In this document: one piece after another, positions 20,570-61,871 of the stretch | Layout: each line of letters starts with the position of its first letter | Numbering within the stretch: position 1 is the stretch's first letter | Source of the DNA: Thermococcus sp. JdFR-02 | GTDB lineage: Archaea; Methanobacteriota_B; Thermococci; Thermococcales; Thermococcaceae | NCBI GenBank assembly: GCA_002009975.1 | Contig: MTLP01000012.1 | Coordinates: 1-64,000, forward strand | Reading direction: 5' to 3' | Length of the DNA: 64,000 bases | Program-made: the position numbers and the translations under genes | Notes under the pieces: model-generated | The model's input: the letters and a program-made list of their open reading frames with translations, nothing else | The model's database searches: none | What the model was told of the DNA's origin: nothing

Positions 20570-21721
20570 TCACTTCCTCAAAGGCTCTGGAATTGCTTTA
20601 TCCCACTGCTCTTTAGCCAATTTTCCAGTGTATTTGAACTTTTCAATTGTTTCTTTTGCTTCCTCTCTTCTTCTTTGATGCTCCTTTAGGAAAGCTTGAA
20701 CTTTTTCTATCAGATAGCGCTTACATTCACCACAAAGCAACTCTCCACTCTTACACTTGGTGTAACGTTCAAGTAATGCCTTATCGTCTGGTTCAAAGAA
20801 TATTTCAAGCCATTTAAAGACCACACACTTCTCTGGATTTCCACCTTTTTCTCTTTGCTCTTTTACAGTGGGCTGACCTCCAGTAACTGCATACTTCCAA
20901 ATCTTTTGCCTAATTTCTTCAGGAGAATCAGTTAGATAAATAGCTGTTTCAGGCTTTGAAGCACTCATTTTTCCCTCTAATCCAGTAAGGGGTGGAACAA
21001 ATTTGCTATGAATTGCCGCTGTCTTGTAGTAACCTAAGCTTTCAGCAAAATCTCTCTGGATTCTCCAATATGGATCTTGATCAATTGCCGCTGGTATTAA
21101 GCTTCTTCTTTCTTCAAAAAATGTTGGAGCAGCTTGAATTGCTGGATAAAAAATCATTCCAATTTTGCTTTGTTCAGTGAATCCAAACACTGCTTTTGCC
21201 ATTGAATAAGTAACTTTCTTTGCTATGGGAATTGCCATTTCATAAATCTTTGTAAATTCGCTGTCCTGAAATATGAAAGTCTTATCTGGATCGAAGCCTA
21301 CGGCTATGATATCCAGTATATTCTCATAAGCCCACTTTTTTGTGTCTTCAAAGGTTAGATTTGGCTTAAACAAAAATTTCTCATCATCTGTTATTTGAAC
21401 ATATAAATTAACTCCAAACTTTTCTTGGAACCATCTTGTAGCGTAGAAAGGAATTATGTGTCCAATGTGCATTGGTCCTGAAGGTCCTCTTCCAGTGTAA
21501 AGGAAGAAACCTTTCCCTTCCTCGTAGTCTTTAAGCACTAAATCGTAGTCTCTGTGAGAGAAAAAGAACTTTCTTTTTAAGTAAAATGGTAGTTCGCTTT
21601 TAGTCAGCTCCTTAGTCTTTTCCAAAAGCTCTTCTGTAAGTGGAGAAGTTCCAAATTCCTTTATTAGCTTGTCATAGTCCACTAAACCTTCAACGTCCCA
21701 TGGAGTAACCTTAAATTCCAC
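20570..21721 (-). CDS. trpS: tryptophan--tRNA ligase
   Basis: VTPW N-terminus, YTGRGPSGPMHIGH (HIGH), KMSAS; GTG at 21721 follows a GGGGTG RBS. Confidence 0.97.
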   Translation of the reverse strand: MEFKVTPWDVEGLVDYDKLIKEFGTSPLTEELLEKTKELTKSELPFYLKRKFFFSHRDYDLVLKDYEEGKGFFLYTGRGPSGPMHIGHIIPFYATRWFQEKFGVNLYVQITDDEKFLFKPNLTFEDTKKWAYENILDIIAVGFDPDKTFIFQDSEFTKIYEMAIPIAKKVTYSMAKAVFGFTEQSKIGMIFYPAIQAAPTFFEERRSLIPAAIDQDPYWRIQRDFAESLGYYKTAAIHSKFVPPLTGLEGKMSASKPETAIYLTDSPEEIRQKIWKYAVTGGQPTVKEQREKGGNPEKCVVFKWLEIFFEPDDKALLERYTKCKSGELLCGECKRYLIEKVQAFLKEHQRRREEAKETIEKFKYTGKLAKEQWDKAIPEPLRK

Positions 21722-21768
21722 CCAAAACACCCCCAGTAAAAGCTAACCCAATCAAAAGAGCACTAATT

Positions 21769-21804
21769 TCACCAAAGCCAAAAACAATCACCAAGTTTCA
21801 TCAT
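21769..21804 (-). CDS. candidate leader peptide (uORF) MMKLGDCFWLW upstream of trpS
   Basis: ATG ATG AAA CTT GGT GAT TGT TTT TGG CTT TGG TGA, about 25 nt downstream of BRE/TATA (AAAAGTTTAAAT, 21828-21839). Confidence 0.55.
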   Translation of the reverse strand: MMKLGDCFWLW

Positions 21805-21896
21805 GGGTTTAAAATGGGGAGCTCTAAATTTAAACTTTTCTATCATAATTAGAAATCAAACAATAACCAAAGCATTTCGTATAAGGTAGCATCTTC

Positions 21897-55764: not shown

Positions 55765-55840
55765 AGCCCCGTGGTGTAGCGGCCAAGCATGCGGGACTTT
55801 GGATCCCGCGACCGGGGTTCGAATCCCCGCGGGGCTACCA
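55765..55840 (+). tRNA. tRNA-Gln (UUG)
   Basis: AGCCCCG/CGGGGCT acceptor stem, anticodon loop CT-TTG-GA, GTTCGAAT T-loop, encoded CCA; upstream TTTATAAA. Confidence 0.97.
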
Positions 55841-61726: not shown

Positions 61727-61871
61727 GGGGGCGTGGTGTAGCCTGGTCTATCATCGCGGGCTCCAGAAGCTATGAGGAAAAGCGGGTTTGCTGACTCGGG
61801 GATGAACTTCTGGAGCCCCGAGCAGCTGGAGAAACCCGCGGACCGGGGTTCAAATCCCCGCGCCCCCACCA
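61727..61871 (+). tRNA. tRNA-Trp (CCA) with 67-nt intron at 37/38
   Basis: GGGGGCG/CGCCCCC stem, anticodon CCA 61763-61765, BHB motif (CTCC/GGAG helix with AGA and AAA bulges), intron 61767-61833, encoded CCA. Confidence 0.96.
61767..61833 (+). ncRNA. intron-encoded box C/D guide RNA of pre-tRNA-Trp
   Basis: C ATGAGGA, D' CTGA, C' GATGAA, D CCGA; guides GCGGGTTT and CTTCTGGAGCC are complementary to the tRNA's own positions around 39 and 34. Confidence 0.9.

Follow-up and report, generated by a model that had tools for sequence, protein, structure and literature searches.

A conserved leaderless mini-ORF upstream of trpS in Thermococcaceae and other archaea, a candidate tryptophan-sensing +1 frameshift leader

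The RF2 gene (prfB) carries a +1 shift site that reads CUU_U, or UUU_U in a minority of species, with a 5' Shine-Dalgarno (SD) element as a major stimulator, according to the passages on this gene in PMC5009743. The yeast element Ty1 shifts at CUU_AGG_C because AGG is slowly decoded, while an abundant tRNA reads GGC, the next codon in the +1 frame (Ty1 passages of PMC5009743). A leader with comparable parts was identified ahead of trpS, the gene of tryptophanyl-tRNA synthetase (TrpRS), in a stretch of 64,000 nucleotides (nt) from Thermococcus sp. JdFR-02 (assembly GCA_002009975.1, contig MTLP01000012.1, positions 1 to 64,000), which is called the window below. Coordinates are those of the forward strand of the window, while all features of the trpS leader lie on the minus strand. 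The leader holds a short open reading frame (ORF) whose AUG is predicted to be the first codon of the transcript. The best-supported reading, which we hold with moderate confidence from comparison of sequences, is that this leader would be an autoregulatory +1 frameshift circuit sensing charged tRNA-Trp.

Long leaders ahead of aminoacyl-tRNA synthetase genes have been noticed in Thermococcales before. In the relevant part of the P. abyssi transcriptome paper, the trp-, leu- and val-tRNA synthetase genes had 5' untranslated regions (5'UTRs) that were long, and cis-regulatory leaders were suggested (PMC3849170). In T. kodakarensis, 11 genes of aminoacyl-tRNA biosynthesis had long 5'UTRs, and the corresponding passages described archaeal attenuators and riboswitches as lacking direct support (PMC4247193). 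The relevant passages of a 2021 review of archaeal recoding list one proven -1 case (fucA1) and no +1 case in a cellular gene, with a halovirus +1 case only suggested (PMC8211752). In human cells, Trp shortage is reported to induce frameshifting at Trp codons, which shows only that a hungry UGG can shift frames. No report of a trpS mini-ORF or of trpS frameshifting in Archaea was found in the literature covered, which did not extend to the supplements of bioRxiv preprints. To our knowledge, no case of amino-acid-responsive leader control has been demonstrated in Archaea.

The trpS leader shares with RF2 a short 0-frame ORF, a shift codon and a 5' SD-like stimulator, as RF2 is described in the passages mentioned (PMC5009743). 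It also shares an A-site codon that would report the level of the gene's own product, and, in 24 archaeal genomes where the +1 frame is fused to trpS, a functional product in the +1 frame. It differs from RF2 in that the slow codon is a sense UGG read by tRNA-Trp, whereas that of RF2 is a stop codon read by a protein factor; moreover, the 0-frame stop of the trpS mini-ORF comes 1-3 codons further on, the mini-ORF is leaderless, and in the window and the other Thermococcaceae the +1 frame ends at the trpS start instead of being fused to the enzyme. The leader also resembles Ty1, ABP140 and EST3 of yeast, where, in the passages treating them, a P-site Leu-tRNA slips from CUU because the next codon is decoded slowly and the +1 codon is GGC, the string being YUU_UGG_C here (PMC5009743). 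Slowness in Ty1 is however constitutive, coming from a rare tRNA, and Ty1 has neither feedback from the encoded enzyme nor an SD-like element.

For the indirect form found in Thermococcaceae, the closest described precedent is the ermC leader ORF together with the older pheL proposal, where frame-shifted ribosomes enter the spacer and activate the downstream gene (passages on these leaders in PMC5009743). In ermC, as given in those passages, the trigger is an antibiotic (ketolide) and the effect is the unfolding of an mRNA hairpin; in the trpS leader the trigger would be tRNA charging, and no conserved hairpin was found. The attenuators of the trp operon and those predicted for Streptomyces trpS also have a short leader ORF with Trp codons ahead of a Trp-related gene (PMC1262725, in the part on these leaders), but the trpS leader has no alternative terminator and antiterminator hairpins and no conserved U-tract, and is served by an archaeal transcription machinery. 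The T-box upstream of bacterial trpS has the same aim, more TrpRS when tRNA-Trp is uncharged; unlike it, the present leader is only about 80-95 nt long, is unstructured and had no Rfam match.

In the proposed circuit, the ribosome would initiate at the 5'-terminal AUG of a mini-ORF of 9-11 codons. Five codons on, the anti-SD of the ribosome would pair with GGUGRU, with peptidyl-tRNA(Phe or Leu) on YUU and UGG in the A site. If Trp-tRNA(Trp) were plentiful, UGG would be decoded and termination would follow 1-3 codons later; if it were scarce, the P-site tRNA would slip +1 onto UUU, GGC would be read next and the +1 frame would be translated. In Thermococcaceae the +1 ribosome would cross the leader and end at or just inside the trpS start, which could allow termination-reinitiation and/or keep the leader covered, and this coverage would last until translation of trpS is under way. 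In the fused lineages, where the +1 frame is the trpS frame, TrpRS would be made directly by the slip. The output of TrpRS would then rise as Trp-tRNA falls, with a logic like that of RF2. The features described below show the conservation, the geometry of promoter and TSS (transcription start site), the layout of the frames and the pairing potential with 16S rRNA; from them we infer the slip, its dependence on Trp-tRNA and, for Thermococcaceae, the way in which a +1 ribosome would raise trpS expression.

Of the 97 family genomes searched, 92 had a trpS match. With three matches cut at the N-terminus, 89 upstream regions were read, the window included; the five genomes without a match were 73-85% complete in four cases and 98% complete in one. 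The mini-ORF was present in all 89 loci, which is conservation far beyond chance. It had 9 codons in 83 loci, 8 in three, 10 in two and 11 in the window only, with the consensus M-x-G-(D/G)-x-(F/L)-W-x-(W/x)-stop. All 89 loci kept the first TGG codon, which falls at the A-site position of the proposed shift and is served by the gene's own product, and a second TGG was found in 68 loci, preceded there by CTT (28), CCT (21) or CCC (16) as the most frequent codons. The 0-frame stop (TGA in 76, TAA in 10 and TAG in 3 loci) stood 1-3 codons past the TGG across the family.

Conservation also reached synonymous sites of the mini-ORF. Codon 3 was GGT in every locus and codon 4 was GAT or GGT, forming an SD-like box (GGTGAT in 39 loci, GGTGGT in 50) placed exactly 3 nt 5' of the slippery codon in 89/89 loci. 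The codon before TGG was TTT in 87 loci, CTT in 2 and TTC in none, and the +1 codon following the slip was GGC in 82 loci. In the trpS genes of six GC-rich relatives, Phe is written TTC 165 times against 22 for TTT, and only 18 of 145 Gly codons are GGT, yet GGT is invariant in the mini-ORF. Since synonymous sites are frozen against codon preference, the constraint acts on nucleotides (GGTGRT, the 3 nt, YTT and TGG) rather than on the peptide. The preliminary description of this locus had expected the Trp codons to be kept in relatives with free synonymous drift around them: the Trp codon is indeed kept, but in GGT, GRT and TTT the nucleotides themselves are frozen.

GGUGAU is exactly complementary to AUCACC of the 16S rRNA 3' end ...GAUCACCUCCU, which was the same in the four family genera checked (4/4). 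In RF2 genes the spacer between the SD and the shift site is likewise 3 nt. From its sequence, the anatomy of the site matches that of an RF2-type and, apart from the SD, a Ty1-type +1 frameshift site. Outside Thermococcaceae, the P-site codon was also one that could re-pair after a slip (CTT_T or TTT_T) in 10 fused loci from metagenome-assembled genomes (MAGs) and in 16 loci from relatives of genome G116.

Stops were counted in each frame from the shift site up to the start of trpS. Summed over the 89 loci, the +1 frame had 10 stops, the -1 frame 169 and the 0 frame 165, and all 10 stops in the +1 frame were TGA directly abutting the trpS ATG; no locus had a +1 stop inside the leader (0/89). 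The first +1 stop was found from -3 to +14 nt relative to the trpS start in 87 of the 89 loci, the two exceptions being one at +32 nt and one beyond the sequence extract. The +1 stop of the window comes 8 nt into trpS, hence the link of this frame to the product is indirect there. Leaders of different genera were largely unalignable. Because third positions are frozen and the +1 frame is open to the trpS start, frameshifting with translational coupling was preferred to classical attenuation.

The motif YTTAGY was observed at the same position of the leader in most family loci, and in most of them the first stop of the -1 frame is located there. A -1-frame ORF opening at UUG inside UUUUGG was also considered and rejected, its length varying from 2 to 14 codons and the ORF not being kept in outgroups.

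The geometry of the promoter places the mini-ORF at the very 5' end of the transcript. The distance from the start of TTTAWA to the ATG was 29 nt in 28 loci and 30 nt in 61, thus 89/89, and in the window the ATG at 21804 is 30 nt past the start of the TATA box at 21834, so that the TSS is predicted at the A of 21804. From the mini-ORF AUG to the trpS start there are 95 nt in 43 loci, 94 nt in 8, 86 nt in 4 and 75-92 nt in the rest. Published differential RNA sequencing of three relatives gave the same lengths: in T. kodakarensis TK1874 (coding sequence (CDS) end 1686163, TSS 1686257) the 5'UTR of trpS is 94 nt (PMC4247193, supplement file 8), in T. onnurineus TON_1666 (start 1530586, TSS 1530491) it is 95 nt (PMC5316973, supplement), and in P. 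furiosus PF0241 = PFDSM3638_01145 (CDS end 236700, TSSs 236786 and 236807) it is 86 or 107 nt (PMC6640164, supplement file 5). The values 94, 95 and 86 nt equal measured AUG-to-trpS distances, an agreement argued from distances across the family rather than from pairing each locus with its named species. Leaderless initiation at 21804, proposed in the preliminary description, is thus supported by the TATA geometry in all 89 loci and by these 5'UTR lengths, and its anatomy of TATA, ATG, MMKLGDCFWLW*, spacer with T-runs, ribosome-binding site and GTG was all present on the minus strand.

Metatranscriptome contigs from one sample, sequenced in four runs, come from a strain that is 95-99% identical. 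They spanned the leader and extended past the promoter (to 21883 and beyond); being assembled contigs, they yielded no TSS, transcript ends or strand. Compared with the window over 21651-21823, these contigs had no difference across leader and mini-ORF among the differences listed, 36 further ones lying outside that list, and several differences were seen in the flanking coding sequence and in the region upstream of the promoter.

The same element was found in other archaea. In the sister family (two genomes), mini-ORFs of 14-15 codons carry GGTGGT-CGA-TTT-TGG some 150 nt ahead of trpS. Although their leaders are unrelated and could not be aligned, the +1 frames have no stop for 41 and 37 codons (shuffle P of being open 0.03 and 0.04) and end 5 nt inside trpS or as a TGATG overlap. 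A wider survey of 80 MAG loci with TrpRS relatives used the pattern ATG-x(0-2)-GGTGR-N4-YTT-TGG. In 10 of them (L109, L114, L119, L122, L123, L124, L126, L153, L154 and L159) the pattern was present and the +1 frame was the trpS frame without any stop, with the 0-frame stop 1-6 codons past TGG; the other matches were 13 of the Thermococcaceae type and 3 of the sister family. Among the 28 loci returned for relatives of G116, 16 were fused, 1 was of the Thermococcaceae type, 7 had nothing and 4 had no recognisable N-terminus. Length differences among fused loci were multiples of three, and in several fused lineages a TATA box was counted by hand about 30 nt before the ATG. Five genomes of a Conexivisphaera-like group have a mini-ORF beginning M(V/SKV)DR(L/V)W with trpS in the +1 frame, and read GGTCGAT or GGTAGAT, without the GTG seen elsewhere in the SD-like box. 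Altogether 24 genomes have trpS in frame with the +1 frame as a fusion (16 relatives of G116, 5 Conexivisphaera-like, L153, L154 and L159), in most cases with a 0-frame stop 1-5 codons past TGG, and the element was counted in 115 genomes (89 + 2 + 16 + 5 + 3).

Two of the five Conexivisphaera-like loci, L190 (G113) and L194 (G121), are devoid of ATG, GTG and TTG in the trpS frame from the preceding in-frame stop to the conserved FEVTPW (123 and 48 nt), and the sole start is the leaderless 0-frame ATG. They come from separate assemblies and their TrpRS are 88% identical. Gene callers would truncate or mis-start trpS in both. It may be, and we consider it about equally likely to prove right or wrong, that many archaea set their TrpRS level by +1 frameshifting at a hungry UGG and that some lineages could not make TrpRS otherwise.

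Other leaders in the survey were of different kinds. The MAGs of L109-L126 and L218-L234 are labelled Thermoproteota or Nitrososphaerota, while their TrpRS are 75-82% identical to that of the window and have the same leader, which suggests that trpS was transferred with its leader or that the taxonomic labels are loose. L156 (ATT_TGG, +1 frame open for 115 nt) was counted as a chance match, probably in the end of an upstream gene. In two families of the same class (f4 and f5, 11 loci) no mini-ORF was found upstream of trpS. Family f3 of that class (L028, L029 and L030) has a different leaderless mini-ORF, of 10 codons with a GTG start (M-I-x-L-G-W-x-x-R-x-stop) and one Trp codon. Its GTG lies within GGTGAT, 30 nt past a TATA, and it contains no slippery site.

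Several observations weigh against a Trp-sensing frameshift. GGTGRY holds a +1-frame GTG by construction, and direct initiation there could fill the +1 frame without any slip; in L232 and L233 the SD spacing fits this GTG better than the ATG. The P-site codon in L182, L191 and L192 is GTT, which re-pairs poorly, and L190 and L194 are MAG contigs in which non-canonical starts could be used. In P. furiosus the second TSS is 21 nt further upstream, and the AUG is not leaderless from there (PMC6640164). The trpS of Thermococcaceae has a strong SD of its own, so the benefit of a +1 ribosome is not obvious. The variability of the leader showed no 3-nt periodicity for the +1 frame, hence only its openness is conserved and not its peptide. 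In dinucleotide shuffles of each leader, the +1 frame stayed open with a mean probability of 0.34 (range 0.14-0.64); the 89 loci being kin, these probabilities are not independent and cannot simply be multiplied. In addition, no 16S rRNA gene was found in the window's own assembly (44 contigs, 99.99% complete), and no paper with ribosome profiling of Thermococcales was found in the literature.

Since GGTGRY always holds a GTG in the +1 frame, two overlapping starts without Trp sensing are the main technical alternative, although an unlikely one. Here GUG would open a long +1 ORF, which in Thermococcaceae would be an upstream ORF coupled to trpS and in other lineages would encode TrpRS, and the AUG mini-ORF would be a decoy that sets the supply of ribosomes to the GUG. 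Besides the GTG in every GGTGRY locus and the SD spacing of L232 and L233, upstream substitutions that look conservative in that frame (I/V, next codon A/V) speak for it. However, the transcript of Thermococcaceae begins at the AUG and leaves the GUG a leader of 7 nt without an SD. Moreover, nothing would keep TTT from changing to TTC or the base before it from being A or G, neither of which occurred in 89 loci, a 0-frame T-R-R stop always lies within a few codons, and the Conexivisphaera-like loci lack this GTG, two of them being without any start in the trpS frame. A possibility that deserves more weight, though still well short of an even footing, is stalling without a slip: as in a broad version of the idea in the preliminary description, a ribosome paused at UGG would alter termination depending on U-tracts or FttA, shield the 5' end or change reinitiation. 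On erm leaders, stalled ribosomes shield the 5' end from 5'-3' exonucleases. The short leader ORF, the invariant UGG and the conserved nearby stop all suit stalling, as do the T6-T7 runs after the ORF in AT-rich genera, and leader-peptide attenuators have been predicted upstream of trpS in some Streptomyces, as the part of PMC1262725 on them states. Against it, the consensus fold of 26 leaders had 0 pairs and nothing was stable at 85 C, the largest genus has no T-runs, and an RNA polymerase left uncoupled by the stalled ribosome would terminate more, which is the wrong direction for trpS. Stalling also leaves unexplained the frozen TTT and GGT, the SD-like box at 3 nt and the +1 frame that is open or fused. 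Even with stalling alone, the leader would be a strong candidate to become the first leader-peptide sensor of Archaea.

A protein-binding operator of DNA or RNA at +7 to +21, either for a repressor acting at the TSS or for TrpRS on its own leader, with the ORFs incidental, is very unlikely. It would agree with conservation at the nucleotide level including synonymous sites, and archaeal repressor sites typically lie just downstream of TATA and TSS. But the motif has no palindrome or repeat and in its strict form occurs once in the genome (the relaxed form had 6 occurrences against about 2.7 expected), and an operator does not explain the ATG, the 0-frame stop and the open +1 frame. Distant lineages with TrpRS only about 61% identical share GGTGR-N4-YTTTGG and its frame relations, and this fits the universal ribosome and tRNA machinery better than a factor confined to one lineage. 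The preliminary description had also named ATGATGA as a possible C box of a C/D box small RNA (sRNA) overlapping the leader, a chance we regard as close to negligible. ATGATGA is located at 21804-21798, short complementary ends AACCC/GGGTT enclose about 55 nt, and a true C/D box sRNA (sR40) exists elsewhere in the window. The string was nevertheless found in 1 of 89 loci, there was no CUGA D box at the right distance, and the best Rfam match was snoR114 with 17 bits against 45 (E 1.5). It owes its origin solely to an in-frame 6-nt insertion after the ATG, which gave the window its two additional codons, and the other 88 loci read ATGNNNGGTG in this place.

Structures in the leader RNA were not conserved either. 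RNAalifold on 87 unique leaders gave -1.5 kcal/mol and no consensus structure, the value for 35 unique GC-rich sequences, drawn from 36 of the 43 loci whose UTR is 95 nt long, fell from -9.75 at 37 C to 0 at 85 C, and the consensus fold mentioned above came from 26 leaders picked by hand out of 89. Nothing stable at 85 C was found for single leader sequences, and candidate pairings of the mini-ORF with the CTTAG region had no covariation by eye. T-runs were T4 in the window, T6-T7 in some AT-rich genera and absent from the GC-rich genus, which has CTCTTCTGC in their place. As neither T-runs nor structure are conserved, an attenuator based on a hairpin or U-tract is not a conserved property of this leader. 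Thus, of the Trp-sensing attenuation put forward in the preliminary description, the idea of sensing gains support from the invariant UGG and the leaderless ORF, while its mechanism of U-tracts and termination control is not supported, for want of a conserved T-tract or hairpin. Rfam gave no family at the gathering threshold for the locus, only two chance-level matches at E<=10, and no T-box.

In the GC-rich genus (L012, L018, L021 and most of its loci), a near-invariant GTTTCGTTTCCACTGGAAATGGAGGTG was observed about 30 nt upstream of the trpS ATG. Its hairpin UUUCC-ACU-GGAAA abuts and partly overlaps the SD of trpS, and UUUCC could alternatively pair with GGAGG. The hairpin core is invariant, hence without covariation signal. 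L058 keeps the UUUCC/GGAAA stem with a longer loop, while L075, L086 and L087 have no GGAAA and the UUCC faces the SD directly. Such an SD hairpin may be an additional layer of control specific to this genus.

The trpS 5'UTR, long and previously unexplained, thus gains a precise anatomy conserved in 115 genomes, and the mechanism is testable by point mutation in the genetically tractable T. kodakarensis and P. furiosus. If the mechanism is real, a cellular archaeal gene would for the first time be seen to use +1 recoding, and an aminoacyl-tRNA synthetase would for the first time be seen to regulate itself by recoding. The circuit would be RF2-like but take its signal from a sense codon and the charging of a tRNA, and it would be conserved in Thermococcales as well as in Conexivisphaera-like and other MAG lineages. 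It would also mean that the reading frame of elongating archaeal ribosomes can be steered through anti-SD pairing, and would be a warning for annotation that some archaeal trpS have no conventional start.

The features of the locus are given in Table 1.

Table 1. Parts of the trpS leader and gene in the window
Feature	Position	Strand	Basis or remark
BRE/TATA (transcription factor B recognition element and TATA box) AAAAGTTTAAAT	21839-21828	(-)	TTTAAA from 21834; read from the sequence
Leaderless 0-frame mini-ORF ATGATGAAACTTGGTGATTGTTTTTGGCTTTGGTGA = MMKLGDCFWLW*	21804-21769	(-)	Translation; kept in 89/89 family loci
SD-like GGTGAT within the mini-ORF, 3 nt 5' of the slippery codon	21792-21787	(-)	
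Proposed +1 shift site: TTT (P site), then TGG (A site)	21783-21778	(-)	
Second CTT TGG and 0-frame stop TGA	21777-21769	(-)	
+1 reading frame of 22 sense codons, with its TAA stop 8 nt into trpS	21779-21711	(-)	Translation
TTAGC (YTTAGY), conserved motif	21746-21742	(-)	Alignments; gives the TAG stop of the third (-1) frame
SD of trpS, GGGGGTG	21734-21728	(-)	6 nt before the start codon; relatives: GGAGGTG, 6 nt, start
trpS (tryptophanyl-tRNA synthetase)	21721-20570, stop included	(-)	Start GTG 21721; Pfam PF00579, E 2e-28

The spacer from the mini-ORF stop to the GTG of trpS is 47 nt (21768-21722) and holds two T4 runs (21757-21754 and 21741-21738, minus strand). The automatic ORF list starts trpS at GTG 21730; the start was placed at 21721 because relatives and SD spacing favour it. 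The product begins VEFKVTPWDV from there, belongs to the class I Trp/Tyr tRNA synthetases and is 80-90% identical to the trpS products of family relatives. The neighbours of trpS are a DUF835 protein upstream and a DUF4932/S-layer-like protein downstream.

For other aminoacyl-tRNA synthetases, the genome was scanned with a rule of TATA, 29-31 nt, a short ORF with ATG and a long ORF led by an SD, which returned 20 candidates. Cognate-codon logic was found among them in trpS only, and no such site was found in the leaders of likely leuS, likely proS and tyrS; the last gene was located through a weak PF00579-type match, and the names leuS and proS (LeuRS-like and ProRS-like) come from reading N-termini. 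MPMRGDRVLND* was seen 144 nt ahead of a LeuRS-like protein of 954 aa (C3 (+) ~119583) and MNF* 26 nt ahead of a ProRS-like protein of 480 aa (C1 (+) ~97429), both without a cognate-codon or slip pattern. Elsewhere in the window, the C/D box sRNA sR40 (RF01297) is located at 61768-61823 on the plus strand, with 54.4 bits against a gathering score of 50, and a tRNA is located at 55765-55837 on the same strand.

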